Shown in pieces: positions 1,144 to 27,680 of a stretch of 32,000 nt of DNA (position 1 is its first letter; each line of letters begins with the position of its first letter). This DNA comes from Phycisphaera mikurensis NBRC 102666 (GTDB lineage: Bacteria > Planctomycetota > Phycisphaerae > Phycisphaerales > Phycisphaeraceae), in assembly GCF_000284115.1 (NCBI RefSeq), contig NC_017080.1, forward strand, positions 3,360,001 through 3,392,000. The letters run 5' to 3'. The notes beneath the pieces are model-generated. The model did no database searches. It saw only the letters and a program-made list of their open reading frames with translations, and was not told where the DNA came from. The position numbers and the translations under genes are program-made.

Positions 1144-1189
1144 CCGCGGACCGCCGGCGATTCGGCCCCCGAGCGGCCGCGGTCCGCGG
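1144..1189. repeat. 46-nt palindromic-ended element, copy A (intergenic, between convergent CDSs)
   Basis: CCGCGGACCG (1144-1153), a 26-nt spacer, then CGGTCCGCGG (1180-1189). The arms extend to 13 bp (GATCCGCGGACCG / CGGTCCGCGGATC, 1141-1192). It begins 6 nt after the stop at 1138 and may double as a bidirectional terminator hairpin. Confidence 0.85.
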
Positions 1190-1301: not shown

Positions 1302-2366
1302 TCAGACCGCTCGCGGGTGGGCCTGGGCGTAGGCGGTCCGCATCCGCATGGTGGACAGGTGCGTGTAGACCTGGGTCGTCGACAGGGACTGGTGCCCGAG
1401 CAGCTCCTGCACGCTTCGGAGGTCGGCCCCGTTGTCGAGGAGGTGGGTGGCGAAGCTGTGCCGCAGGGTGTGCGGCGAGATGCCCGGGTCCATGCCGGCG
1501 CCGACGAGGTACTTGTCGAGCTTGCGGCGGACGCTGCGGCTGGACAGCCGGCCGCCGTTCTTGTTGATGAAGACCGGCACCGCGGCGGTGCGGTCGCTCT
1601 CCCGGCGGAGCTTGGCGAAGCGGGGGTCGGGCTCGAGCAGCGTCATGTAGTGGCGGATCGCGGCGAGGGCGTGGCTGCCCAGCGGCACGATCCGCTCCTT
1701 CTTGCCCTTGCCGCGGATGTGCATCGTCTGCTCCGCCATCGAGACGTCGCCGCGGTCCAGCTGCACGAGCTCGCTCACGCGGACGCCGGTGGAGTAAAGC
1801 GTCTCGAGGATCGCCCGGTCGCGGGCGCCCAGCGTCTCGCGGTTGTCGGGAGCCGCCAGCAGCGCCTCCACCTGCTCGACGTTGATGGCCTTGGGCAGCC
1901 GCTTCGCCTGCTTGGGGCTGCGGATGAGCAGCATCGGGTTGACCTGGTCGGGGTCGATGCCCGACAGCCACTTGTAGAAGCTCCGCAGCGTGGCGACCTT
2001 GCGGGCGGTCGTGGCGGGGCTGTAGCCGAACTGGTCGAGGTGGCCGAGCAGGCCGCGGATCGTCATCGCGTCGGCGCCGCGGAGCTTGTAGCCGAGGGTT
2101 TCCTCGTCGATCTCCTCCTCCAGCTGCGCGGCGAGCGGGCCGCCGGCGAGGTACTCCACGTACTGGCGGAGGTCGGCCCCGTAGCACCGGGCGGTGTACG
2201 GGCTGAAGTGGCGCTCGTGGGTGAGGTAGTCGAGGAAGCGCTGGACCAGCGGGTGGTTCACGCTGGGCTTCGCCGCTGCCGCCGCCCTTGCCCCCCCGGC
2301 GGCGGGCGTGGCGGGCGTGGCGGCCGGTCGGGCTTCGTCGGGGAGGGGCTTGGAGGCGGCGGGCAT
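1302..2366 (-). CDS. xerC: Tyrosine site-specific recombinase, XerC/XerD family
   Basis: 354 aa. The catalytic set is readable: R (TGVRVSEL), K (RGKGKKER), HxxR (HTLRHSFATHLL), H and Y (LLGHQSLSTTQVYTHL). N-terminal core-binding motif FLDYLTHERHFSPYTARCYGADLRQY is present. XerC and XerD cannot be separated by eye, so the symbol is tentative. Confidence 0.9.
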   Translation of the reverse strand: MPAASKPLPDEARPAATPATPAAGGARAAAAAKPSVNHPLVQRFLDYLTHERHFSPYTARCYGADLRQYVEYLAGGPLAAQLEEEIDEETLGYKLRGADAMTIRGLLGHLDQFGYSPATTARKVATLRSFYKWLSGIDPDQVNPMLLIRSPKQAKRLPKAINVEQVEALLAAPDNRETLGARDRAILETLYSTGVRVSELVQLDRGDVSMAEQTMHIRGKGKKERIVPLGSHALAAIRHYMTLLEPDPRFAKLRRESDRTAAVPVFINKNGGRLSSRSVRRKLDKYLVGAGMDPGISPHTLRHSFATHLLDNGADLRSVQELLGHQSLSTTQVYTHLSTMRMRTAYAQAHPRAV

Positions 2367-2569
2367 GGGCGTCCTGAGGGAGCGGAACGGGGGCTCAGGA
2401 AAAACGGCCTCATGCCGAGATTCGGAAGGAACAAGCGGCGGGAGCCGGTGGGATCGATCGGCTCCGCCGACGCGTTCCGGCTTCGCCGGAAGGGATTTTC
2501 GCTCGCTCGGAAGCGAGGTAAAGGCCGCGGGCTATCGGTCGGATCGCCGCGGCGGGGGCAACTCCGCGG

Positions 2570-5450: not shown

Positions 5451-7145
5451 ATGCTCGTCGCGACCGCCGCCCTCCTCGCCGCCGCCGCCCCGCCCGCGTG
5501 GGCGGAGCCCCCGGCGGCGGAAGCGGTCTTCCAGGACGGCGGCGGCCTCCGCCTCGCGGTGACGGTGGCGTACGTGCTGCTGCTCGCGGCGCTGTGCGCC
5601 TTCGGCGGGCACCGCTTCCTCATGGTCCGGTTGTTCCTGCGGCACCGGCGCGACCGCATCCGCCCCGCCCGCCGCTACGCCGACGAAGAGCTGCCGGCGG
5701 TGACGGTCCAGCTGCCCCTCTTCAACGAGGGGGCCGTGGCGGCGCGGGTGATCGACGCCGCCGCCGCCCTCGACTACCCCCGCCTGCAGGTGCAGGTGCT
5801 CGACGACTCCAACGACGGCAGCGAGCGGATCGGCGCCGAGCGAGCGGCCTTCTGGCGCGGCCGCGGCGTCGACGTCGTGCACGCGCACCGCGCCGACCGC
5901 TCCGGGTACAAGGCGGGCGCCCTCGCCGCGGGGCTCCAGACCGCGACCGGCGAGCTGGTCGCGATCTTCGACGCCGACTTCGTCCCCCCCGCGGGCTTCC
6001 TCCGGGCCGCCGTCCACTTCTTCACCGACCCGGGCATCGGCATGGTGCAGGCGCGCTGGGGGCACCTCAACCGCGACGAGTCGGCGCTGACCGCGGCGCA
6101 GGCGATCCTGCTCGACGGCCACTTCGTGGTCGAGCACACCGCCCGCAACCGCTCGGGGGTGTTCATGCACTTCAACGGCACCGCCGGCCTGTGGCGGCGC
6201 CGCTGCATCGACGACGCCGGGGGCTGGTCGCACGACACGCTGACCGAGGACGTGGACCTCTCGTACCGGGCGCAGCTGCGGGGCTGGCGGTTCCTCTTCC
6301 TCCCGCGCCTGGTGTGCCCGGCGGAGCTACCGCGGGAGATGAACGCGTTCAAAACGCAGCAGCACCGCTGGACCAAGGGCAGCGTGCAGACGGCGATGAA
6401 GCTGCTGCCGCTGGTGTTCCGGTCGGACCAGCCGCTGAAGGTGAAGGCCGAGGCGGCGGCTCACCTGCTCAGCCCGGCGACGTACCTGGCGGTGATCGGC
6501 TTCACCGCCCTGTGCTACCCCGCCATCGTCATGAACCTGCGGTACACGCCCGCCGGCGCCTTCTGGGGCCTGGGCGTCGGCGTGCTGCTGCTGTGCCTGG
6601 GCACGATCTCCGCGGCGACCTTCTACGTGGTGAGCCAGGCCGCCCTCGGCCGCTCGGCGTGGAAGACGATGCTGCGGGTGCCCTTGCTCATGGCCCTCGC
6701 GGTGGGCATCGCGGTGTCCAACGCGGCGGCGGTGCTGGAGGCGCTGGTCGGTCACCGCAGCGGCTTCGTGCGGACGCCCAAGCTGGGCGGGGCGGAGGCG
6801 GGAACCGAGGCGGATTCGGGGCCGGGCCCGACGCCGCGGGTGCGGGTGTCTCCGGCGAAGGCGGTGGTGATCGCGGCGGAGCTGGGCATGGGGCTGCTGA
6901 TGCTCGAGGCCGCGCGGCGGGGGCTGATGTCCGGCGCGACCGCCATCAGCACGCCCTTCCTGCTGCTCTTCGCGTGCGGCTACCTCTACGTGGGCTCCGC
7001 CTCCTTGTGGGGCCTGCGGCCGCGGACCGCGCGGGCAAACGCCGGCGAGGCCGCGCGGTCCGCGGGGACGGAGCGCGCGGCCCGGCGAGAAGCGCCCCCC
7101 GGCGAGGCCAAGATCGCGATCGGCCGCGAGGCCGTGGCTTCCTGA
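5451..7145 (+). CDS. Processive-type family 2 glycosyltransferase (cellulose-synthase/CslA/MgdA-like), multi-TM C-terminus
   Basis: 564 aa. GT2 motifs are readable: VLDDSNDGS, AIFDADF (DxD), TEDVDLSYR (TED), QQHRWTKG (QxxRW). An N-terminal TM helix and several C-terminal TM helices are present. Confidence 0.9.
   Translation: MLVATAALLAAAAPPAWAEPPAAEAVFQDGGGLRLAVTVAYVLLLAALCAFGGHRFLMVRLFLRHRRDRIRPARRYADEELPAVTVQLPLFNEGAVAARVIDAAAALDYPRLQVQVLDDSNDGSERIGAERAAFWRGRGVDVVHAHRADRSGYKAGALAAGLQTATGELVAIFDADFVPPAGFLRAAVHFFTDPGIGMVQARWGHLNRDESALTAAQAILLDGHFVVEHTARNRSGVFMHFNGTAGLWRRRCIDDAGGWSHDTLTEDVDLSYRAQLRGWRFLFLPRLVCPAELPREMNAFKTQQHRWTKGSVQTAMKLLPLVFRSDQPLKVKAEAAAHLLSPATYLAVIGFTALCYPAIVMNLRYTPAGAFWGLGVGVLLLCLGTISAATFYVVSQAALGRSAWKTMLRVPLLMALAVGIAVSNAAAVLEALVGHRSGFVRTPKLGGAEAGTEADSGPGPTPRVRVSPAKAVVIAAELGMGLLMLEAARRGLMSGATAISTPFLLLFACGYLYVGSASLWGLRPRTARANAGEAARSAGTERAARREAPPGEAKIAIGREAVAS
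7020..7065. repeat. 46-nt palindromic-ended element, copy B (inside the GT2 3' coding region)
   Basis: CCGCGGACCG (7020-7029), a 26-nt spacer, then CGGTCCGCGG (7056-7065). The arms extend to a perfect 15 bp (CCGCGGACCGCGCGG / CCGCGCGGTCCGCGG). It starts at codon position 1 and is translated PRTARANAGEAARSAG in the C-terminal tail. Confidence 0.85.
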
Positions 7146-7177: not shown

Positions 7178-9784
7178 GTGCGGCGCCTGCTCGACACCTG
7201 CATCCACGCCGCCGAGGCGCGGCCCCGCGGGGCCGTGCTCGTCGGCGTGCTCGTGATGCTGCTGGGCGCCGGCTCGGCGTTGACGCTGCGGCCGGGCACG
7301 GCGGTGGAGGACATGCTGCCGGCCGCCTCGCCTTCGGCCGAGGCGCTGGGCCGGGTGCTGCAGGACTTCCGACTCATCGACGACCTCGTGCTCGTCGTCG
7401 ACCCACCGGCGGGCGCCCAGGAAGCCGACGTCGCGGCCCAGACGCGCCGGCTGGCCGACCGTCTCCGGGTCCGGCTGGCCGGGGACAGGAGCATCGGCGG
7501 CGTGCGGGCGTCCGCCGGGCAAGCCGACGGGGCGGGCGTGGCGGGGATGGCGCAGCTGCACGCGTACGCGGCGGCGTACGCCCCCTGGCTGCTCGACGGA
7601 GCCGGCCGCGAGCGGCTGCGGGCGGCGCTGGAGCCGGCCGCGATGCGGGCCTCGCTGGAGCGCCTGCGGCGCTCGCTGGGCGCAGCCGGCAGCGAGTCCG
7701 CGGCCGGGGCGGGGCCGACCGCGGCCGATCCGCTGGGGCTGGTCGCGACGCTGCTCGACCCCGGGAGCGACCCGCTGGCCGCGCCGCCGGTCGGACCCGC
7801 CGACGCGGCCGCCCCGCCGTCGATCCGCATCGCCGCCACGCGGCCCGCGAACGACCTGCCCTACGCCGCGTCGCTGCTGAAGACCGTGACCGCCGCGGTC
7901 GCCGCCGAGAACGACGACCAGCTCGAAACGACCGCGACCGGCGCCCACGCCATCGCCGACTTCACGGCCCGCTCGGTCCGCGCCGACATGGTCATCAGCC
8001 TCGCGGTGACGATGGCCTCGCTGTCGCTGCTCTTCCTGCTGGTCTACCGCAGCGGGCGAACCCTCCCGCTGCTCTTGCTGACCGTCAACGGCGGGCTGGT
8101 AACGGCCTTCGGCCTGTACGCGGCGTTCGGCGGGAGCCTCTCGCCGGTGACCGCCGTGTGCGGGGCCGTGCTCGCCGGCCTGGGCATCGACTACGGCGTT
8201 CACCTGCTCGCGGCGCGGCGCTTCGACCGCGACGCGGCGCCGCCGCTCGTGGGCCAGGCGGCGGCGGACGCGAGCCGACCCGCACCCGCGGCCGGTGGCG
8301 TCATGGGCATCGGCCCGACGCTCGTCGCCGCCTGCGTGACCTCGTGCATCGGCTTCGCCGCGGTCGGCCTCGCCGGCGTGCGGGCGCTCAGCGAGTTCGC
8401 CGTGCTCGGCGTCTTGGGCCTCGTCGCGACGCTGGCGATGACGCTGTTGTTCCTACCCGCCGCCCTGAAGCTCGCCGGCGGCGCCGACGCGGCGCGGCCG
8501 CGGCTCGACCCCCAGCCGCTGCTCCGCCGGCTGCTCCGCCGGCCGCGTGTGCCGCTGTTCGCCGTGTCGATCGGCGGGGGCATGGTGGCCGCGGTGCTCT
8601 CCACCGGCGGCGGCGTCCGCTTCGCCAGCGACCTGGAGGCGATGCACGCCCGCCCCAACCCGCCGCTGGAGGCGCAAGCCCGGTTGACGGGCGCGGCCGA
8701 AGCCTCGGGCGGGCTGCTCGTGCTCGTGGAGGCCGACCCGCTGAGGCCCGGGTCGCTGCGCGAGCGGACGCTCGCCGCCGAGGCCGCGCTGGCCCGGCTC
8801 GCGGCCGAGGCCGGCTCGCCGGTCGCTTCGGTGACCGGCCCGGGCCGCTTCCTGCCCACCGGCGACGCCGACGCCGCGTACGCCGGGCTCGACGCCGACG
8901 CCGCCCTCGCCGCTCTGGACGCCGCCGCGTCGGAGGCGGGCTTCGCGCCGAACGCCTTCGCGGGCTTCCGGGAGACGCTCCGCACGCTGCTCACCCCCGC
9001 CCCGCCGCCGGGCCCCGAGGCGCTCGCGTCGACCCCGCTGGCCCGGCTGCTGCCCCGAAGCTCCGCCGCCGGCGCCATCCCGGCGGCGCTGGTGGTCGTG
9101 CGGCTCGCCCGGCCCTGGGAGCTGCTGGCCGATCGGGCGGCCGCCTTGGACCGCGTGCGGGCCGCGCTCGCGCCCGTCCGCGGCGCCACCGCCACCGGCC
9201 TCGCGGTCGTCGGCGCGGACATGCAGGCCCGCATCGCCGAGGTGCTGCCCCGCCTGCTCGCGATCGCCGGCCTGGCGGTGGTGCTCTGGCTCGCCGTCGT
9301 GTTCCGCAACCCCTGGGACGTCTTCCTCGCGCTCGGGCCCGCCGCCCTGGGCCTCGCCGCCGTGCTCGCCGCCGTCGTCCTCACCGACACCGAGCTGCAG
9401 GCCGCCAACCTCATCGCGCTGCCGCTCACGCTGGGCCTGGGCGTGGACGACGGCATCTTCCTGGTCCACCTCGCCCGCAAGGTGCGGCGGGCCAGCGAGA
9501 CGCCGACCGCGGGCGTGACCGCCCGCACGCTCGAGGCCGCGGCCGCCGGGCCGGTCCACGCGATCCTCATCACCAGCGTCACCACCATCGCCGCCTTCGG
9601 CTCGCTGTGGTTCACGCGGAGCCCGGCGATCGCGTCGCTGGGCCTGCTCTCGGCGGTCGGCGTCACGGCCTGCCTGGCCGTGTCGGTGCTCGGCCTGCTG
9701 CCGGCGCTGGCGATCCAGCAGCGCTGGCTGGTGAAGCGCCGCGAGGCGCGGGAGCAGCGCAGCGCCGGGCGGCCGGGCCGGTGA
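7178..9784 (+). CDS. MMPL/RND-superfamily membrane transporter (predicted exporter)
   Basis: 868 aa with a GTG start 32 nt after the GT2 stop. Two soluble-loop plus multi-TM halves carry MMPL-type motifs (AGLGIDYGVHLL and LGLGVDDGIFLVH). Confidence 0.85.
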   Translation: MRRLLDTCIHAAEARPRGAVLVGVLVMLLGAGSALTLRPGTAVEDMLPAASPSAEALGRVLQDFRLIDDLVLVVDPPAGAQEADVAAQTRRLADRLRVRLAGDRSIGGVRASAGQADGAGVAGMAQLHAYAAAYAPWLLDGAGRERLRAALEPAAMRASLERLRRSLGAAGSESAAGAGPTAADPLGLVATLLDPGSDPLAAPPVGPADAAAPPSIRIAATRPANDLPYAASLLKTVTAAVAAENDDQLETTATGAHAIADFTARSVRADMVISLAVTMASLSLLFLLVYRSGRTLPLLLLTVNGGLVTAFGLYAAFGGSLSPVTAVCGAVLAGLGIDYGVHLLAARRFDRDAAPPLVGQAAADASRPAPAAGGVMGIGPTLVAACVTSCIGFAAVGLAGVRALSEFAVLGVLGLVATLAMTLLFLPAALKLAGGADAARPRLDPQPLLRRLLRRPRVPLFAVSIGGGMVAAVLSTGGGVRFASDLEAMHARPNPPLEAQARLTGAAEASGGLLVLVEADPLRPGSLRERTLAAEAALARLAAEAGSPVASVTGPGRFLPTGDADAAYAGLDADAALAALDAAASEAGFAPNAFAGFRETLRTLLTPAPPPGPEALASTPLARLLPRSSAAGAIPAALVVVRLARPWELLADRAAALDRVRAALAPVRGATATGLAVVGADMQARIAEVLPRLLAIAGLAVVLWLAVVFRNPWDVFLALGPAALGLAAVLAAVVLTDTELQAANLIALPLTLGLGVDDGIFLVHLARKVRRASETPTAGVTARTLEAAAAGPVHAILITSVTTIAAFGSLWFTRSPAIASLGLLSAVGVTACLAVSVLGLLPALAIQQRWLVKRREAREQRSAGRPGR

Positions 9785-10506
9785 TGCCCCCCGGGGGCTC
9801 CTGGTCGCTTCTGGCGCCAACCGCGGGCCTGGCGGCGATCGGCGCCGGCCTCGGCTTTGGCGCGGCCTGGCCGCGCTCGAACCTCTTCGGCGGCGTCGTG
9901 TCGCGACGGCCCGTGCCGCTGCCGCCGCTCCACGCCGCCGCGCTCACGCTGTGGTGGCGGCCGGGGCGGCGCGGGTGCGGGCTGCTGCTGGACCGCCTGC
10001 TCGACGGCGACCGGCCCGGCCGCTTCCGCGTGTGCGTCTTCGTGGACGCGGCCGACGCCCGGGCCGACGCCCACGCCCTCGAGGAGCTGGCCGACGCCGG
10101 CCACGCCGTCGGCTCCCGCGGCGGCCCCATCGACCGCGCCGCGCTCGCCGAGGGCTACGGCGGCTGGCGTCGCCGCCTCGACGCCGCCGACGACGCGATC
10201 GCCGACGCGACCGGCCGCCGGCCGGTCTTCTTCCGCCCCCCGCGTGGCGTCAAGACCCCGGCGATGCTGCGGGAGGCGGCGGCGGGCGGGCAGGTCGCCG
10301 TCACCTGGGCGCGGCGTCTGCCGCCGCGGCTGCCGGTCGCGCCCGCCGCCCGGTGGCTCGCGGGAGCCGCGGCCGGCGGCGTGCTCGACCTGGGCGCGGA
10401 CCCGCTGCGCGCCGCGGACGGCCTGCCGTTTCTGCTGTCCGGGCTCGCGGTCCGCGGGGTGCGGGTGGTGGGGATGCGGGAGCTGCTGGGCGGGGAGGCC
10501 GCGTGA
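9784..10506 (+). CDS. NodB-homology (polysaccharide deacetylase fold) protein, catalytic motifs apparently degenerate
   Basis: Only the 3' 723 nt of track ORF 8158..10506 are credible. The ATG at 9784 overlaps the TGA (9782-9784) of the MMPL gene; an in-frame GTG at 9781 is an alternative start. The NodB layout is visible: ALTLWWRPG (position of TFDDG), GHAVGSRG (position of HxxxxH), FFRPPRGV (RPPYG-like), VLDLGAD (position of LxHD). Confidence 0.7.
   Translation: MPPGGSWSLLAPTAGLAAIGAGLGFGAAWPRSNLFGGVVSRRPVPLPPLHAAALTLWWRPGRRGCGLLLDRLLDGDRPGRFRVCVFVDAADARADAHALEELADAGHAVGSRGGPIDRAALAEGYGGWRRRLDAADDAIADATGRRPVFFRPPRGVKTPAMLREAAAGGQVAVTWARRLPPRLPVAPAARWLAGAAAGGVLDLGADPLRAADGLPFLLSGLAVRGVRVVGMRELLGGEAA
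10412..10457. repeat. 46-nt palindromic-ended element, copy C (degenerate, inside the NodB-like CDS)
   Basis: CCGCGGACGG (one mismatch, 10412-10421), a 26-nt spacer, then CGGTCCGCGG (10448-10457). The spacer shares TGCCGTTTC with copy D. It is translated ...AADGLPFLLSGLAVRG. Confidence 0.65.
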
Positions 10507-11411: not shown

Positions 11412-11482
11412 AGGCCCATGGTGTAACGGTAGCACTAAAGATTCTGATTCTTTCAGTCGGGGTTCGAATCCCTGTGGGCCTA
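11412..11482 (+). tRNA. tRNA-Gln (anticodon CUG)
   Basis: Manual cloverleaf of 71 nt. Acceptor stem AGGCCCA/TGGGCCT plus discriminator A. D arm GTGT-AACGGTA-GCAC. Anticodon stem AAAGA/TCTTT with loop TTCTGAT (CTG). T arm CGGGG-TTCGAAT-CCCTG. CCA is not encoded. Confidence 0.9.
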
Positions 11483-12351: not shown

Positions 12352-12397
12352 CCGCGGACCGTTGCCGTTTCCGCCCTCGCCGGCCCGCGGTCCGCGG
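12352..12397. repeat. 46-nt palindromic-ended element, copy D (intergenic, downstream of the LysM gene)
   Basis: CCGCGGACCG (12352-12361), a 26-nt spacer, then CGGTCCGCGG (12388-12397). The left arm is embedded in a perfect 12-bp palindrome GGTCCGCGGACC (12349-12360). Confidence 0.85.
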
Positions 12398-15262: not shown

Positions 15263-15967
15263 TCAGGCGACGCCGACCGCCAGCACGTCGTACACCGCGT
15301 GCGTCGCCACCGCGATCCCGAAGCCCCGCCCCACGAACAGGAAGCCCAGGTAGGCGCCCGCGAGGGCGTAGAAGAGGAAGCGGGGCCAGGTGAACCCGGT
15401 GACGTCGCCGAAGTGGTACAGGGCGAAGCCCACCGCGGTCAGGAGGATCGCGCCCACCGTCGCGGTCGTCTCCCCGGCCCGGAACACCCCGGCGAGCACC
15501 GTGTGCACGGCGGCGATGCCCAGGAGGCGGAAGACCAGCTCCTCGTAGATGCCGGCGCCGAGGGCGAACACGAAGCCGGCCATCTTCGGGTAACCGTCCA
15601 GCAGCGTGGCGACCCCGTCGCCGCCGCGGACCGCCGCCAGCCCCACCCGCTCGGCGTCGGAGAAGAGCGACCCCAGCAGGAACAGCGGCACCGCCCAGAC
15701 GATCGCCTCCACCACCATCCACGGCCAGAGCTTCGGCTCGGGTGCGAAAGGCTCGCGGTCTCGCGAGGCCGCGTGCATCCCCACCAGCACGCCGATCACG
15801 ACCAGCGGCGGCAGGTGGTAGCCCGTCGCGCCGAAGAGCTCGAAGAACCTGCCCAGGAGGCGCTCCGCGTAGATGGCCGGGAGGCGGTCGCCGCCCTCGG
15901 GCGCGTAGAGGGCGGTCCCGACGCTGTACAGCACCAGCAGCGGCAGCAGGAACCACAGGCACTGCAT
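15263..15967 (-). CDS. CPBP-family intramembrane glutamic endopeptidase (CAAX protease-like)
   Basis: The ATG at 15967 (MQCLWFLLPLLVLY...) is used because the upstream part of the 419-aa track ORF overlaps the VOC gene in another frame. Motifs: GIYEELVFR (EExxxR), FALYH, ATHAVYD. The protein is multi-TM. Confidence 0.8.
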   Translation of the reverse strand: MQCLWFLLPLLVLYSVGTALYAPEGGDRLPAIYAERLLGRFFELFGATGYHLPPLVVIGVLVGMHAASRDREPFAPEPKLWPWMVVEAIVWAVPLFLLGSLFSDAERVGLAAVRGGDGVATLLDGYPKMAGFVFALGAGIYEELVFRLLGIAAVHTVLAGVFRAGETTATVGAILLTAVGFALYHFGDVTGFTWPRFLFYALAGAYLGFLFVGRGFGIAVATHAVYDVLAVGVA

Positions 15968-16800: not shown

Positions 16801-18132
16801 ATGGACGCGTTCGAGATCACGGGGGGCAGGCCGCTCCGGGGCGAGGTCACCATCCAGGGGGCGAAGAACGCGGCGCTGCCGCTGATGGCCGCGGCGCTGC
16901 TCGCCGGCGGCGACACGCCGGTGACGCTGCGGAACGTGCCCGACCTCTCGGACATCCGCAGCATGCTCAAGCTGCTCGCGGAGCTGGGCCTGGAGCTGAC
17001 GCGAGACACCGGGGGCACGCTGTCCTCGGCCCCGTCGGCCAGCGACAAGGTGCTGGCGCCCTACGACATCGTCAAGACGATGCGGGCGGGCATCTGCGTG
17101 CTCGGCCCGCTGCTGGCGAAGCGGGGGCGGGCGGAGGTCTCGATGCCCGGCGGCTGCGCGATCGGGACGCGGCCGGTCGACTTGCACCTCCGCGGGCTCG
17201 AGGCATTGGGCGCCCGCATCACGCTCGACGCCGGGTACATCGTGGCCGAGGCGCCGCCGGCCCGCGGCGGCGGGCGGCGCCTCCGCGGGGCCCACGTCTT
17301 CCTCGGCGGCCCCAACGGCTCGACGGTCCTGGGCACGGCCAACGTGATGTCCGCGGCGGTGCTCGCCGCGGGCACGACCGTCATCGAGTGCGCCGCCTGC
17401 GAGCCCGAGATCGAAGACCTCGGGAAGATGCTCGTCGGCATGGGGGCCGAGATCGAGGGGCTCGGCTCGCCGCGCGTGACCGTTCACGGCGTCGACGAGC
17501 TCGCCGGCGTCGACCACGCCGTGATGCCCGATCGGATCGAGGCGGGCACCTACCTGGCCGCCGCCGCCGCGACCGGCGGCGACGTGGCGATCCACCGCTT
17601 CCCGGTGCGGGCGATGGGCGCCTTCCTCGCCGCGCTCCGGGACGTGGGCGTCCGGCTGGAGGAGGTCGACGGCGGATCCGCGGACCGCGAACTCAACGAC
17701 GCCGAAACCGCCACGGTCCGCGGGGTCATCCCGCGCCGGCTCGATCCCACGGCGGTCGTGACCCAGCCGCACCCGGGCTTCCCCACCGACCTGCAGGCCC
17801 AGCTGATGGCGCTGCTCTGCCTCGCCGACGGCAACTCGCTGGTGACCGAGAAGATCTTCCCCGACCGCTTCCTGCACGTGCCCGAGCTGCAACGCATGGG
17901 CGCCGACGTCACGCGGCTGGGGCCCTCGGCGATGGTCCGTGGGGTCCGCGAGCTGATCGGGGCGCCGGTGATGGCCAGCGACCTGCGGGCCTCCGCCGGC
18001 CTGGTCATCGCCGGCCTCGCCGCCCGGGGCACGACGCTCGTGCAGCGCGTCTACCACCTCGACCGCGGCTACGAGGCGATGGAGACGCGGCTGCAGGCGC
18101 TGGGCGCCGACATCCAACGCGTCCGGCGCTAG
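16801..18132 (+). CDS. murA: UDP-N-acetylglucosamine 1-carboxyvinyltransferase
   Basis: 443 aa. The sequence is collinear with E. coli MurA as I remember it: GEVTIQGAKNAALPLMAAALL, YDIVKTMRA, the active-site loop PGGCAIGTRPVDLH with Cys retained, PHPGFPTDLQAQ, ASDLRASAGLVIAGL, YHLDRGYE. Confidence 0.95.
   Translation: MDAFEITGGRPLRGEVTIQGAKNAALPLMAAALLAGGDTPVTLRNVPDLSDIRSMLKLLAELGLELTRDTGGTLSSAPSASDKVLAPYDIVKTMRAGICVLGPLLAKRGRAEVSMPGGCAIGTRPVDLHLRGLEALGARITLDAGYIVAEAPPARGGGRRLRGAHVFLGGPNGSTVLGTANVMSAAVLAAGTTVIECAACEPEIEDLGKMLVGMGAEIEGLGSPRVTVHGVDELAGVDHAVMPDRIEAGTYLAAAAATGGDVAIHRFPVRAMGAFLAALRDVGVRLEEVDGGSADRELNDAETATVRGVIPRRLDPTAVVTQPHPGFPTDLQAQLMALLCLADGNSLVTEKIFPDRFLHVPELQRMGADVTRLGPSAMVRGVRELIGAPVMASDLRASAGLVIAGLAARGTTLVQRVYHLDRGYEAMETRLQALGADIQRVRR
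17678..17723. repeat. 46-nt palindromic-ended element, copy E (inside murA)
   Basis: CCGCGGACCG (17678-17687), a 26-nt spacer, then CGGTCCGCGG (17714-17723). The spacer ends in CCGAAACCGCCA, shared with copy F. It is translated (S)ADRELNDAETATVRG. Confidence 0.85.
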
Positions 18133-22132: not shown

Positions 22133-22178
22133 CCGCGGACCGTCGCTCTTTTCGCCCCGAAACCGCCGCGGTCCGCGG
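22133..22178. repeat. 46-nt palindromic-ended element, copy F (intergenic, 5' of the AsmA-like gene)
   Basis: CCGCGGACCG (22133-22142), a 26-nt spacer, then CGGTCCGCGG (22169-22178). It ends 17 nt before the ATG at 22196. Confidence 0.85.
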
Positions 22179-22195: not shown

Positions 22196-23128
22196 ATGAA
22201 GTGGATCCTCCGCCTTGCCGTCGTGCTCGTGATCCTCGCCGTCGCCGTGCTCGGCGCCGGCTACTTCTTCCTCAACCAGATCGTGCAGCGGGTCGTCGTG
22301 GACGCGGGCACCGAGGCGACGGGCACGCGGACGACGCTCGCCGGCGTCGGCCTCTCGCCCTTCTCCGGCGAGGCCAGCCTCACCGGCTTCGGCGTGGCCA
22401 ACCCCGAAGGCTTTGGCGGCGGCGACGTGATGTCGTTCACCAACGCCGACGTGCAGGTCGACCCCGCGAGCCTCCTCACCGACGTCATCCAGGTGCCGCG
22501 CTTCCACGTCGACGGCACGACGATCCACATCGCCTACGCCGACGGCCGGGCCAACTTCCTGGAGCTCTACAAGCACGTGCTCGGCGACGCCACCGGCGTG
22601 CCCGAGGAGCCCGCGCCCGACGAACCCGCCGACGGCGCGGCCGCGACGAAGGTGGTCATCGGCGACCTCCGGGTCACCAACACCCGCTTGCTGGGCAGCG
22701 TGCAGCTGCCCGGCTCGGAGACGCCGCTGGAGGTCGACCTCGTGCTCCCGCCGGTGGAGATGGAGAACATCGGCAGCGACGGCTCGGGCGTCACCGCCAA
22801 GGAGGCGATGCGCCTGGTGATGGAGGCGGTGCTCGCCAACGCCCGCGACGAGGCGATCAAGCTGCCCGACCTCGAGGGCGTCGCCCGGGCGTACCTCGAC
22901 GGCGTGCTCGAGGAGAAGCTCGGGGCCGACCTCAAGGGGCTCGAAGCGCAAGCCAAGGGCAAGAAGGCCGAGCTGGAGGCCGCCGTCGAGGACAACAGAG
23001 CGAAGCTCGACGCGGTCGTCGACGAGAACAAGGCCCGGCTCGAAGAGGGCAAGCAGCAGCTCGAGGGCCTGAAGGAGGGCTTTGGCGGGCTCTTCGGCGG
23101 GAAGAAGGACGAGCCGACCGCCGAGTGA
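22196..23128 (+). CDS. Membrane-anchored AsmA/DUF748-like protein with C-terminal coiled coil
   Basis: 310 aa with an N-terminal TM helix (MKWILRLAVVLVILAVAVLGAGYFFL). An AsmA-N-like segment (LAGVGLSPFSGEASLTGFGVANPEGFGGGDVMSF) is present. The C-terminus is charged and heptad-like (KKAELEAAVEDNRAKLDAVVDENKARLEEGKQQLEGL). The family call is by eye. Confidence 0.6.
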   Translation: MKWILRLAVVLVILAVAVLGAGYFFLNQIVQRVVVDAGTEATGTRTTLAGVGLSPFSGEASLTGFGVANPEGFGGGDVMSFTNADVQVDPASLLTDVIQVPRFHVDGTTIHIAYADGRANFLELYKHVLGDATGVPEEPAPDEPADGAAATKVVIGDLRVTNTRLLGSVQLPGSETPLEVDLVLPPVEMENIGSDGSGVTAKEAMRLVMEAVLANARDEAIKLPDLEGVARAYLDGVLEEKLGADLKGLEAQAKGKKAELEAAVEDNRAKLDAVVDENKARLEEGKQQLEGLKEGFGGLFGGKKDEPTAE

Positions 23129-23162: not shown

Positions 23163-23918
23163 TCAGTAGTAGGGATCCGCCTTCGCCATCCCCTCGATGA
23201 AGCCGCGGCTGCGGCGGTCCTGGCGGCGGGGGTTCGCGGTCTCTTCCTTCAGCCGCAGCACCTCCGCGTGCCCGTCCACGAAGGCCATGCTGGAGCGGAG
23301 GTGGCCGTCTTCCTCGCCGTGCCAGGCGTTCTGCTCGCCCGCGGCGAGGTTGCGCAGCTGGATGAAGTCGGTCATGACCGACTTGGTGGCCGGCGAGGTG
23401 ACGTCCTGGAGGCCGAAGCCCTCCAGCGACCAGATGCCGTTGCGTTCGACGCGATCGCGCAGGCGATCGTCCTGGTTGTTCATCATGACGTAGGACGTCC
23501 CCCAGAGGTCCGCGACGGTGGGCGTGCTGTAATCCACCACGCTGCGGTCCAGCGGGCAGACCGCCACGGCGACGTCGCCGCCGAGGTAGTGGTGCAGCGC
23601 TCGCTGCTCGGCGGGGATGTTGCGCCGGTCCGAGTTGCTGCCGCGGTCGCCCGCCATGTTCACGTACCAGACCGGGTCCACCCGGGCGCTGTCCTCCACG
23701 CCCGCGGGGAAGCGTCGCTTCGCGTCGACCGTGTAGGCGGCGTAGGCCTGGCCGAGCGAGCGGATGTTGCTGACGCACTGCGTCTCCGCGGCGACGCCGT
23801 ACGCCTTGGTCATCACCGGCACCGCGAGCGCGGCCAGCAGGCCGATGATGCCCATGACGACCAGGAGTTCGAGGATCGTGAACGCGCAAGCGCGACGGCG
23901 GGGGTGTCGTTTCGTCAT
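23163..23918 (-). CDS. Prepilin-type N-terminal cleavage/methylation-domain protein (paralog 1)
   Basis: The ATG at 23918 gives MTKRHPRRRACA-FTILELLVVMGIIGLLAAL, a class III signal with Glu at +5 and Ala at -1. The C-terminus reads GHLRSSMAFVDGH ... DPYY. Confidence 0.85.
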   Translation of the reverse strand: MTKRHPRRRACAFTILELLVVMGIIGLLAALAVPVMTKAYGVAAETQCVSNIRSLGQAYAAYTVDAKRRFPAGVEDSARVDPVWYVNMAGDRGSNSDRRNIPAEQRALHHYLGGDVAVAVCPLDRSVVDYSTPTVADLWGTSYVMMNNQDDRLRDRVERNGIWSLEGFGLQDVTSPATKSVMTDFIQLRNLAAGEQNAWHGEEDGHLRSSMAFVDGHAEVLRLKEETANPRRQDRRSRGFIEGMAKADPYY

Positions 23919-24281
23919 CGGATGGTTTGGATCGGGGGCCGCGTGCATTCCCCGCTGCCTTCTTCGGACACGGATCGGTCCTCCCTGAGGGCCCGATCAC
24001 GCCCACGCCGACGGGTGGGCGGGGTGATGCCGGTTGCGCGGCGGCGTGCGGGAGGGGGAGCTGCGCCCGATCCCGACGGCCTCCAGGAGCGGGACGACGC
24101 GAGAAAGGCAGGGCTGGCGTCCGCGGGCGTAGCGGACCGAGCCCGCTCTGGGGCGGGCAAGGAGCAGCCGGAGAGCCCGACCGCGTGCATCGGCGGCCTC
24201 CTCGGCCGGGAAGACGATCCGGAGCCCGCGAACGGACCGCCCGCGTTCCGGCGGGCCCGCCTCGGCCCGCCTCCGCCCGCC

Positions 24282-25013
24282 TCAGTAGTAGGGGTCGCTC
24301 TTGGCCATCGCCTCGATCTCGCCGAAAGAATGCCGCACCAGCGGGGGGTTCAGGACCGTCGGCTCGACCTTCATCCGGACCGTCTCGGCGTGGCCGTCGA
24401 CGAAGCCCATGCCCGTGCGGAGGTGCCCCTTCTCCACGCCGTGCCAGGCGTGCTGCTCGGACTCGGCGAGGCTCCGGTGGTGGATGTAGTCGGTGAAGAC
24501 CGACTTCGTCGCCGGGCTGCTCACGTCGTTGAGGCCGAAGCCTTCCAGAGACCAGATGCCGTTGAGCGTCCGCCGGAGGGAGGTGGCCGCCCCGTTGTCG
24601 ACGTAGCTGTATGACGTCCCCCAGAGGGCGGCGATGGTCGAGCTGCCCGCCCGCGTGGTGCCACGGTCCAGCGGGCACACCGCGACCTCCACGGCGCCGT
24701 CCAGGTAGGGGTTGAGCACGCGCCGGTCGGCGTCGCGGTTGATCGAGCTGGACGTGGCGCCGCGGGCCCCGACGACGTTGAGGAACCAGACGTCGTGGCC
24801 GTGGCCGGCGGGGAAGCGACGCTTGAAGTCCACCGTGTAGGCCGCGTTGGCCTGCGTCATCGAGCGGAGGTTGCTGATGCACTGGGTCTCGGCCGCGACC
24901 CCGAAGGCCTTGGTCATCACCGGCACCGACAGCGCGGCCACGGCCGCGATGATCGCGATGACGACGAGGAGCTCAAGGAGGGTGAAACCGCCGCGAAAGG
25001 AAGGCTGCTGCAT
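24282..25013 (-). CDS. Prepilin-type N-terminal cleavage/methylation-domain protein (paralog 2)
   Basis: The ATG at 25013 gives MQQPSFRGG-FTLLELLVVIAIIAAVAAL (Gly at -1, Glu at +5). It is collinear with paralog 1 (VPVMTKA.GVAAETQC.SN.RS, VAVCPLDR, NGIWSLEGFGL.DV.SPATKSV.TD, GHLR..M.FVDGHAE, MAK.DPYY). Confidence 0.88.
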   Translation of the reverse strand: MQQPSFRGGFTLLELLVVIAIIAAVAALSVPVMTKAFGVAAETQCISNLRSMTQANAAYTVDFKRRFPAGHGHDVWFLNVVGARGATSSSINRDADRRVLNPYLDGAVEVAVCPLDRGTTRAGSSTIAALWGTSYSYVDNGAATSLRRTLNGIWSLEGFGLNDVSSPATKSVFTDYIHHRSLAESEQHAWHGVEKGHLRTGMGFVDGHAETVRMKVEPTVLNPPLVRHSFGEIEAMAKSDPYY

Positions 25014-25189
25014 GATTGTTCTCGGGTGTAAAGCAGCCCGACCCCCGGGCTTGCGTTCCTGCATCGGCGCGGCGGCGGCTTGGCTTGTGCCCCGGGTTCG
25101 ACCCTTTGCGGCGGCGGCGCATCAGGAGATGCCTGAAGCTTCTGGGCGGGTTGCAGCGGTTGCCGGCCCGCGCCCCGTAGCGTCGGGCC

Positions 25190-27680
<2,491 letters not shown>

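Follow-up and report, generated by a model that had tools for sequence, protein, structure and literature searches.

A 46-nt palindromic repeat family with invariant ends and a copy in frame within murA

The murA gene of the 32-kb window, by which we mean the whole stretch of DNA analyzed, carries in frame a copy of a 46-nt palindromic repeat that occurs six further times in the same window. In our judgment, which we hold with moderate confidence, this copy is old, has been inherited vertically, and belongs to an undescribed REPIN/MITE-like family whose ends are constrained at the DNA level. Our analysis established that the copy belongs to the family, that it persists in orthologous genes, that its arms are conserved, that one arm overlaps conserved codons, and that the loop in which it lies is of ordinary length.

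The murA copy and its host gene

The host of the copy is a 443-aa ORF that Pfam assigns to the EPSP_synthase family, and the copy follows the pattern CCGCGGACCG-N26-CGGTCCGCGG (full 46-mer, CCGCGGACCGCGAACTCAACGACGCCGAAACCGCCACGGTCCGCGG). The gene and the parts of the copy are as follows.

16801..18132, + strand: murA CDS (443 aa) from the ORF list; Pfam EPSP_synthase E = 3e-93, solved MurA structures E = 1e-120
17665..17709, + strand: beta-hairpin loop, as codons for residues 289-303; in the AlphaFold2 model, strands 285-288 and 304-309 lie on either side
17676..17677, no strand assigned: AT dinucleotide flanking the left arm; AT plus 46 nt gives 48 nt, or 16 codons
17678..17723, no strand assigned: murA copy of the 46-nt palindromic element (copy E), S293..G308; exact pattern match, none in shuffles
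17678..17687, no strand assigned: left arm CCGCGGACCG, coding for (S)-A-D-(R); identical in L001 and L004, with the bases just outside variable
17702..17713, no strand assigned: interior block CCGAAACCGCCA, coding for (A)-E-T-A; common to other copies
17714..17723, no strand assigned: right arm CGGTCCGCGG, overlapping the T305-V306-R307 codons and forcing G308

The initial annotation had placed copy E wholly inside murA with the translation (S)ADRELNDAETATVRG. This was borne out, as 17678-17723 falls within 16801-18132 and reads in frame as S293-ADRELNDAETATVR-G308. Eleven of these 16 residues are those of the frame-2 translation of the family consensus. When scored with an HMM built from the family copies (the murA copy itself included), the element gave 28.8 bits with E = 1e-7. 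Its 12-nt interior block is identical to other family copies at 9-11 of the 12 positions, and the 22-nt stretch formed by this block and the right arm is only 1-3 nt away from the copies at window 22133, L088 19406, L073, L043, and L086 5700. The predicted DNA hairpin, at -14.1 kcal/mol, is the weakest among the seven window copies. It had also been argued that bases must have been gained or lost on insertion because 46 is not a multiple of 3, an argument that lapses once the flanking AT is counted. Mapping the element onto an AlphaFold2 model (mean pLDDT 88) placed it in a beta-hairpin loop at the surface; this is the stretch of lowest confidence, with residues 291-300 at the protein's minimum pLDDT of 64.

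A family of 46-nt repeats

We found seven family copies in the window, six with exact arms and one with a single mismatch, and the spacer is 26 nt in all of them. No matches to the pattern were obtained from 100 shuffled versions of the window. The six copies outside murA are listed below, none with a strand assigned.

1144..1189: family copy, intergenic, 6 nt past a stop codon between convergent genes; AT on both sides; hairpin -24.1 kcal/mol
7020..7065: family copy in a GT2 glycosyltransferase ORF, within the final 42 codons; read as PRTARANAGEAARSA
10412..10457: family copy with one mismatch (CCGCGGACGG) in a polysaccharide deacetylase ORF; translated as AADGLPFLLSGLAVRG
12352..12397: intergenic family copy, 17 nt beyond the stop codon of a LysM-domain gene
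22133..22178: family copy separating ribD from DUF748, two divergent genes; it ends 18 nt short of the ATG at 22197
26798..26843: family copy in the hypervariable acidic linker of a DEAD-box helicase ORF; translated as PRTADDSDGEPPRSA

Of the seven copies, three or four are counted as lying in ORFs, namely those in murA (17678), the helicase (26798), the deacetylase (10412), and the tail of the GT2 protein (7020). In the GT2 ORF, the left-arm CCGCGG falls on codons for R-P-R that are common to L084 and L085, both of which are without a copy there, and the C-terminal tail of the window protein diverges from the two relatives after this point. The deacetylase segment beneath the copy aligns without gaps to a 32%-identical homologue (P0246), i.e., there is no length change, and the orthologues in L084 and L085 have perfect arms and retain the rare Phe codon TTT. 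Orthologues of the copy at 22133 are present in L086 (5700) and L089 (437), the latter with a compensatory double change in its arms. Lastly, the helicase copy has perfect arms in L088 and one mismatch in L089, and the indels of the linker adjoin the 46-nt unit with none inside it.

To describe the family beyond the window, we used a sample of about 130 kb (the window and related contigs) chosen independently of the motif. This contained 26 copies with exact arms, six with one mismatch, and three with two mismatches, and no copies with a spacing other than 26 nt. Close relatives carry about one copy per 3-4 kb, and over the clade as a whole the figure is about one per 3-5 kb. The interiors of the copies are ~30% diverged. 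Searches of ~165 kb by nhmmer with the family HMM found no full-length decayed copies and only a few lone half-sites. Outside copies, the half-site CCGCGGACC occurs once; a third-order Markov model gives 1.5 occurrences as the expectation for the entire window. Since isolated half-sites are at chance frequency, the unit is the pair of arms. Syntenic intergenic sites of close relatives are occupied in some cases and empty in others, which implies turnover or mobility of the copies.

The consensus of the family is AT-CCGCGGACCG-YCGCCGTTTCGG-NN-CCGAAACGGCGR-CGGTCCGCGG-AT, so that the unit measures 46 nt, or 48-50 nt with its AT flanks. All six frames of the consensus are open, and frame 2 translates as SADRRRFGPETATVRG. 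Of 71 family copies, 31 are flanked by AT at one or both ends (both in seven), compared with 3 of 38 chance matches; as AT is its own reverse complement, a target-site duplication and a longer inverted repeat look alike here. The calculated folding energy is -33.7 kcal/mol for the consensus, -18 to -24 kcal/mol for the intergenic copies, -27 kcal/mol for the in-ORF GT2 copy, and -14 kcal/mol for the murA copy. Base pairing in the interior is weak in many copies and barely above that of chance matches, with only interior positions 1 and 3 exceeding background. Pairing at these two positions is insufficient evidence for a conserved extended stem. The arms themselves provide a single case in which a double change, in the L089 copy, preserves their complementarity.

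The family is genuine and, from these comparisons, appears limited to a narrow Phycisphaera-like clade. The pattern gave just 26 scattered and unrelated single matches in 596 Gb of reference genomes, which is the level of chance in a collection that apparently does not include the source genome, and 21 kb from a relative with a 70%-identical MurA contained neither copies nor half-sites. At gathering thresholds, no Rfam family matched the element, the sole find in the window being a tRNA-Gln at 11412-11482, and a BLAST search of a plasmid collection with the consensus returned only noise. Our literature search retrieved no account of palindromic repeats from Phycisphaera, and unrelated primer lists were the only places where the motif string turned up. 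There are no Y1 or RAYT-type transposase genes in the window or the related loci, which cover ~3% of a genome, nor did we see an autonomous insertion sequence with the same ends in ~215 kb of loci.

Loop length in MurA

The initial annotation had attributed an expansion of the murA loop to the element, having counted 38 residues in the segment where E. coli has 26. On recounting, we obtained 39 and 27, and the surplus of 12 stands. Its placement on the element held in part: in an HMMER alignment to solved Gram-negative-type MurA, nine residues fall in the loop under the element and three further on. Versus Firmicute-type MurA, the length difference is confined to the hairpin loop.

To ask whether the segment is lineage-specific, as had been proposed, we aligned 120 MurA proteins, consisting of 116 from Phycisphaerae outside the close clade and the four members of that clade. 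An enlarged, hypervariable loop was found in 116 of the 116, with lengths of 10-64 residues (median 15). The window loop has 17 residues, and 38% of the 116 are as long or longer. At the end of the loop, T305 is found in 85, V306 in 116, and R307 in 96 of the 120 proteins, and the VR of this T-V-R strand is also present in Firmicute MurA structures. Because the right arm encodes the conserved T-V-R, excising a 46- or 48-nt unit would remove a conserved strand, and this excludes simple insertion into an intact ancestral gene as the history. Both the loop lengths of the orthologues and the T-V-R overlap contradict the proposal that the element accounts for the expansion. Judged by these alignments, the element is not the source of the extra length of MurA relative to E. 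coli. The likeness to Rickettsia palindromic elements (RPEs) that had been drawn survives to the extent that a dispersed palindromic family has a copy in frame in a hairpin loop, persistent in at least three lineages; it fails for the element as the cause of the expansion.

Orthologues with a peptide of the same length and no palindrome, which the initial annotation had named as evidence against its proposal, do exist if this is taken literally. L002 and L003 (MurA 87-89% identical) have the homologous 16-residue segment at equal length, with both arms decayed by three mismatches each. This decay is most likely a secondary loss, a reading favored because P0004, and not P0003, was basal in 84% of distance bootstraps of the four close murA lineages, where rooting is weak and discrete characters are star-like. 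We also compared the window loop peptide with the 16-residue loops of sister lineages (e.g., SEIRN versus RELND), and this homology was too weak for use.

Conservation of the arms at the DNA level

A comparison of the arms with synonymous-site divergence had been suggested. Both arms are perfect in the murA genes of the window, L001, and L004, three lineages in which the bases adjoining the arms vary and fourfold sites differ pairwise by 37-40%. Two fully conserved 10-mers 36 nt apart occur at only 1.5% of murA positions, the others being in conserved parts and mostly in the C-terminal region. Orthologous copies have also been kept at three loci besides murA (deacetylase, ribD/DUF748, and helicase). 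Across the four orthologous sets, 10 of 300 pairwise sites differ in the arms versus 105 of 390 in the interiors, and upon adding the decayed orthologues, the counts become 50 of 440 versus 180 of 572, all of these being phylogenetically non-independent. At residue 308, 114 of the 120 MurA proteins have V or I, and G is found only in the three element-bearing proteins. G308 is dictated by the right arm, against the protein consensus. The best reading of these patterns is that the arms and the 26-nt spacing have been kept through a constraint on DNA or RNA and not through the protein. Restriction-site logic was considered for the arms, which hold SacII-type (CCGCGG) and RsrII-type (CGGWCCG) palindromes, and was rejected, since outside the copies there is neither avoidance nor enrichment of either one.

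Origin of the murA copy

That the arms are simply coding sequence, kept by selection on the protein together with extreme codon bias (GC3 ~97%), has in its favor that T-V-R is conserved in the protein and that the genome uses very few codons. However, the A-D-R codons are invariant even though they lie in the loop of MurA that is least conserved, and Gly308 is contrary to the protein consensus. The fourfold sites of the arms are identical in three lineages, while at ~58% of fourfold sites one or more of the three differ, for which we estimate a chance probability of ~0.01. These 20 nt, identically spaced, also recur at six further places in the window, both in non-coding DNA and in different reading frames. 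With zero matches in shuffles and with the intergenic copies, coincidence is effectively refuted, and we regard it as extremely improbable. The insertion of an RPE-like selfish element into a short ancestral murA loop, such that the inserted peptide is the expansion, fares better. The murA copy does belong to the family and lies in frame in a surface loop; a 48-nt unit preserves the frame and is open in all frames; the presence/absence at syntenic intergenic sites implies turnover or mobility; and the GT2 copy resembles a 3'-end event that altered a C-terminal tail. Opposed to this are the 10-64-residue loops (median 15) of all 116 orthologues outside the close clade versus 17 residues here, and the loss of the T-V-R strand upon exact removal, which means that the right arm is not added sequence. 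The loop was, moreover, hypervariable before the family arose, because the family is absent from sister lineages. The simple form of this history is already contradicted, and we consider it unlikely.

We find it equally hard to favor an origin by point mutation, without imported DNA, in which both arms and the GAAACCGCC block were assembled stepwise in murA under selection or molecular drive for a genome-wide motif, with uptake signal sequences and highly iterated palindromes as the model cases. It would account for the ordinary loop length, and the right arm amounts to synonymous choices plus one Val-to-Gly change on native T-V-R-V codons. It is also in keeping with the gapless deacetylase copy, with the native R-P-R coding sequence that supplies the CCGCGG of the GT2 left arm, and with the near absence of decayed copies. 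What weighs against it is the block CCGAAACCGCCA, identical with other copies at 11 of 12 positions, for which a rough estimate that allows for all pairwise comparisons gives a chance of ~2e-3. The murA copy also has the AT flank typical of the family, the consensus is palindromic over its whole length, implying that the 46-nt unit was copied, and lone half-sites are no commoner than chance, unlike uptake sequences. Loop length by itself fits replacement or formation in place equally well as insertion followed by trimming.

Under our preferred explanation, in which the murA copy is an inherited member of a REPIN/MITE-like family, the element would be non-autonomous and its 10-12-nt ends would be recognized by a putative sequence-specific protein that acts in trans. 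The 16-codon unit, the six open frames, and the frame-2 peptide SADRRRFGPETATVRG would make the element tolerable in permissive protein segments. In murA it sits in a beta-hairpin loop at the protein surface, one that had been enlarged and hypervariable across the class beforehand. The right half of the murA element would be imported DNA. Its right arm would have taken the place of the codons for the ancient T-V-R strand, and microhomology to the native ACG-GTC-CGC is the most plausible route. The left interior would later have been remodeled into hydrophilic loop residues, and both arms with their 26-nt spacing would since have been maintained by constraint on DNA or RNA. What is inferred here is the factor in trans, how the element entered murA, and the use of the arms. 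With the spacing fixed and the interiors unpaired, what is recognized could equally well be two double-stranded half-sites or a hairpin.

More tentatively, and as a possibility that we ourselves rate as doubtful, the arms might function as sites for a sequence-specific factor peculiar to the clade and be maintained by purifying selection even in essential genes, so that murA carries a second code at the DNA level. Candidates for the factor would be a partner of the REPIN/RAYT kind and a chromosome or RNA factor of the host. Such a code may override the protein consensus (Gly for Val/Ile at 308) while sharing codons with an ancient beta-strand, and copies may overwrite native coding sequence without a change in length, as in the deacetylase.

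Significance

Short palindromic repeats are usually seen either as extragenic (REPs and REPINs) or as decaying passengers of genes (RPEs), and the 46-nt family fits neither description. It is a repeat of strictly 46 nt whose ends are invariant at orthologous positions in an essential gene, where the synonymous sites around it are nearly saturated, and in murA the apparent DNA-level constraint outweighs a conserved protein position. If the arms do act as a DNA-level code in essential genes, this would be an intragenic repeat biology that is new relative to REPs, MITEs, and RPEs. The family provides, within a phylum that has received little study, a compact system in which to ask whether repeats are kept up by a dedicated enzyme, by a host function, or by both. 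It also counsels caution in annotation, as the coincidence of a repeat with a variable loop is no proof that the repeat made the loop.

Comparison with known repeat systems

Uptake sequences (USS/DUS) and cyanobacterial HIP1 are clade-specific, over-represented motifs that are tolerated in genes and kept at orthologous positions; they are single short motifs, abundant as singletons, that arise by point mutation. The 46-nt family is likewise clade-specific, over-represented, tolerated in genes, and orthologously kept. However, its unit is a 46-nt pair of arms with a common interior, and its lone half-sites are at chance.

Bacterial MITEs occasionally reside in frame within ORFs (PMC10969869). 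The present element resembles those of the Correia, ERIC, and BOX type in its short terminal inverted repeats (10-12 nt), its lack of coding capacity of its own, a possible 2-bp AT flank, presence/absence polymorphism between relatives, and in-frame copies in ORFs. It differs in being far shorter than described MITEs, and no parent insertion sequence is known for it.

REPINs consist of two invariant inverted ends around a less conserved spacer of fixed length, with hairpin potential and signs of selection on the ends (PMC3116915). The 46-nt family shares the invariant inverted ends, the less conserved spacer (fixed at 26 nt), and the hairpin potential, as well as the restriction to a lineage, vertical persistence, signs of selection on the ends, and an expected hundreds of copies per genome. 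REPINs, in contrast, have ~70-110 nt between their ends, are almost exclusively extragenic, and are defined by their association with a RAYT, whereas the present unit is half that size and has three or four of its seven window copies in ORFs.

Lastly, RPEs are palindromic repeats found between genes and in frame within unrelated housekeeping ORFs, where they give extra or altered peptide that is compatible with the fold (summarized in PMC10969869). The 46-nt family is likewise both intergenic and in frame in ORFs, and its murA copy occupies a fold-compatible surface segment in the AlphaFold2 model. RPEs are ~100-150 bp long and belong to Rickettsia, whereas the present element has 46-50 nt, is found in a planctomycete that its MurA relatives place in the Phycisphaerae, and has no sequence in common with them. 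RPEs are added peptide, but the murA element adds no length beyond that of element-free orthologues, and, as a further difference, its ends are conserved at the DNA level inside an ORF.

A translated copy of the element in murA

The window (G+C 74.7%) contains seven copies of the 46-nt palindromic element, each with a 26-nt spacer between its two 10-nt arms, and shuffled sequence of the window contains none. Four copies lie in ORFs, two after stop codons and one before a start codon. These copies, murA and the one tRNA gene noted are as follows:

1144: copy, after a stop codon
7020: copy, tail of a GT2 glycosyltransferase ORF
10412: copy with one mismatch, within a polysaccharide deacetylase ORF
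11412-11482: tRNA-Gln (anticodon CTG), between a ribulose-phosphate 3-epimerase gene and a LysM-domain gene
12352: copy, after a stop codon
16801-18132: murA, 443-codon ORF (Pfam EPSP_synthase E = 3e-93; solved MurA structures E = 1e-120)
17678-17723: murA copy, CCGCGGACCG-N26-CGGTCCGCGG, in frame as S293-ADRELNDAETATVR-G308
22133: copy, 18 nt ahead of a start codon
26798: copy, within a DEAD-box helicase ORF

As the initial annotation had proposed, the murA copy lies within the CDS, is translated in frame (S293 to G308) and is a genuine member of the dispersed palindrome. The AT flank is present, and 9-11 of the 12 bases in its right interior block CCGAAACCGCCA are those of other copies; the 22 nt formed by this block and the arm differ from the copy at 22133 by one base. 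The copy's score against the family HMM is 28.8 bits, and its peptide matches the consensus as translated in frame 2 (SADRRRFGPETATVRG) at 11 of 16 residues. Together, flank, interior block, HMM score and frame-2 residues indicate that the copy is a family member by descent. The left interior bears no recognisable family resemblance and the hairpin (-14.1 kcal/mol) is the weakest of the seven, both expected if selection at the protein level reshaped the interior. The murA copy is thus real, old and translated.

The deacetylase copy (AADGLPFLLSGLAVRG) aligns to a 32%-identical homologue with no gap over this segment, which falls in the fold's terminal helix and strand, and it retains TTT, a rare Phe codon, in the TTTC motif. 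In the GT2 gene, the left-arm CCGCGG is native R-P-R coding sequence, common to relatives with no copy at that position. The GT2 C-terminal tail (7020 copy included; 6990-7145) is wholly unlike its orthologues past the common ...LWGL-RPR, and its stop falls 21 residues later than in the relatives' contigs L084 and L085. In L085 a copy lies instead at 7285-7330, in the intergenic stretch between the GT2 and MMPL genes.

Lone half-sites occur at chance level in the window, and elsewhere in it the SacII-type and RsrII-type palindromes of the arms show neither avoidance nor enrichment. The sole exact isolated half-site CCGCGGACCG (15624-15633) lies inside an Rce1-like gene on the opposite strand, with no partner 26 nt off. 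The copy at 1144 and a XerC/XerD-type tyrosine recombinase gene (1302-2531, minus strand) are separated by 113 nt; since the syntenic gene of L085 has no neighbouring copy, we take this proximity to be coincidental. The direct repeats D1, D2 and D20, 79% identical, are explained by a tandem pair of paralogues (23163-23996 and 24282-25121, minus strand), both carrying a pilin-like N-terminal methylation motif.

Consensus and arm variation

Aligned copies gave an almost perfect palindrome, AT-CCGCGGACCG-YCGCCGTTTCGG-NN-CCGAAACGGCGR-CGGTCCGCGG-AT, which as single-stranded DNA folds at -33.7 kcal/mol. Of 71 copies, 31 have AT on one side or both, versus 3 of 38 chance hits. With AT, the 46 nt make 16 codons, open in all six frames in the consensus and in 43 of 65 real copies. 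In a census restricted to contigs reached without using the motif, 26 copies had exact arms, 6 had one mismatch and 3 had two, with a spacing of 26 throughout; interiors were ~30% diverged and paired weakly. Almost no intermediates between intact and clearly decayed copies were found on these contigs or by family-HMM search.

Most arm mismatches are one recurrent half-site variant, CCGCGGACGG, in which the C of position 9 is G; it makes up 7 of 9 single arm mismatches across seven imperfect copies:

Window: 10412-10421
L085: 17076, 18863, 20018
L086: 694, 4898
L089: 4311

This recurrence hints that CCGCGGACGG may be a tolerated or alternative recognition sequence. In the L089 copy ahead of the DUF748/AsmA gene (copy at 437-482), the arms CCGCGGATCG and CGATCCGCGG carry a compensatory double change that leaves the 10-nt inverted repeat perfect.

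The element occupies an enlarged MurA loop

The AlphaFold2 model of MurA (mean pLDDT 88) places a strand at 285-288, a loop at 289-303 and a strand at 304-309, with the protein's lowest confidence at 291-300 (pLDDT 64), and so bears out the element's location in a loop. Against Gram-negative-type solved structures the 12-residue surplus is real but divides into 9 residues in the hairpin loop and 3 farther on; against Firmicute MurA, the loop is the only difference.

That an insertion like a Rickettsia palindromic element (RPE) caused the expansion was not borne out. Across 120 aligned Phycisphaerae orthologues, the stretch from the strand ending at residue 287 to T305 is hypervariable (10-64 residues, median 15; 17 in the window). 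It is as long or longer in 38% of the other 116, all lineages without the repeat family. Because the modelled strand spans 304-309, the right arm, xCG-GTC-CGC-GGx, encodes its start, and this strand is conserved: of 120 orthologues, 116 have V306 and 96 have R307, and the x-V-R-V motif recurs in Firmicute structures. Cutting out a 46- or 48-nt unit yields ...EVDGG-VIPRRL..., and since removal would take away the T-V-R strand, plain insertion into an intact murA cannot be the history.

Two relatives with MurA 87-89% identical carry the 16-residue segment without intact arms:

L002 1852-3207 (likewise L003): murA orthologue with decayed arms

Their homologous segment SEEGDLNDARTASVRA is unchanged in length, with 3 mismatches per arm and an additional 7-codon insert adjoining the arms, and third codon positions here are unusually A/T-rich. 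The element-bearing MurA P0004 was basal in 84% of replicates in a distance bootstrap of four close murA lineages. The L002/L003 arms most likely reflect recent decay, and the loop sequence suggests recent, rapid change after arm loss. The loop codons and the insert (ACA AAG GGT CCT GGC ACC TTT) include an unusual share of codons ending in A/T for a gene with GC3 near 95%. The gap-free segment of the deacetylase copy and the native R-P-R codons in GT2 likewise speak against expansion by the element. The element, then, occupies an enlarged MurA loop and did not create the enlargement.

The arms are conserved at the DNA level

Between murA of the window and of the relatives' contigs L001 and L004, fourfold sites differ at 37-40%, and the arms are identical at 20 of 20 bases. 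The directly flanking bases vary, with T/C before and with C/T and G/C after. Only 1.5% of murA positions have a pair of invariant 10-mers at a distance of 36 nt, and every other such pair falls in conserved parts, chiefly the C-terminal region. The arm forces Gly308 at a position that is Val or Ile in 114 of 120 orthologues.

Perfect or near-perfect arms are also retained in orthologous copies of the deacetylase gene (L084, L085, L086), the helicase linker (L088, L089; indels adjoin the 46 nt, none fall inside) and the site before the DUF748 gene (L086, L089). Over the four orthologous sets, pairwise differences number 10/300 arm sites and 105/390 interior sites, or 50/440 and 180/572 with the two decayed orthologues added; as the pairs share history, P values for these counts are nominal. 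What stands out is this DNA-level conservation of element ends within an essential gene.

Distribution and turnover

In 596 Gb of species-representative genomes, exact arms and spacing were matched by 26 single, unrelated hits, none of them in other Phycisphaerae; the closest proteins to MurA carry the names Planctomycetota or Phycisphaerae. A scan of metagenomes turned up ~35 copies from a relative, on contigs in a single marine assembly. Close relatives' contigs, picked via orthologous proteins and not the motif, have one copy per 3-4 kb (L088, 6 in 22 kb; L085, 5 exact and 3 one-mismatch in 21 kb), and in 21 kb of a relative with MurA 70% identical there are none. By these scans the family is abundant and limited to a narrow clade. 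L001 has a copy 3' of murA and the syntenic place in the window has none; such presence and absence at syntenic intergenic sites shows copy turnover.

Some relatives also carry ~270-nt palindromic composites, inverted arrays of the octamer CACAGAGG (CACAGAGGCACAGAGG...) around a central 46-nt copy:

L001 11333-11613: 3' of murA
L084 about 2450-2760: between two small genes
L085 about 2400-2720: between two small genes

The window has no composite at either syntenic site. Octamer arrays without a central copy lie at 20-124 in L084 and 1975-2079 in L085.

Discussion

The interpretation with most support is a non-autonomous REPIN/MITE-like element (REPIN, a hairpin-forming REP doublet), whose ends would be putative sites recognised in trans by a sequence-specific factor. 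With a length of 16 codons and an open reading in every frame, it could enter permissive protein segments, after which ends and spacing would be kept as the interior drifts or adapts to coding. The T-V-R codons of murA would then come from the imported right half of the element, in an event perhaps steered by microhomology, which we propose because native ACG-GTC-CGC agrees with 9-10 nt of the arm. Candidate uses of the arms are mobility, a hairpin or cruciform, RNA ends, or two half-sites, 36 bp apart, that are bound as double-stranded DNA; the fixed spacing and unpaired interiors lean towards protein recognition of both ends.

No Rfam family matches the element, and our literature search found no description of the motif. 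In REPINs, inverted ends that do not vary enclose a spacer that is constant in length but less conserved, with the potential to form a hairpin (PMC3116915). The element shares this architecture but differs in not being extragenic. In-frame residence inside genes is the behaviour of RPEs (PMC10969869), which the element resembles in being intragenic and in frame, although it is unlike them in size and sequence.
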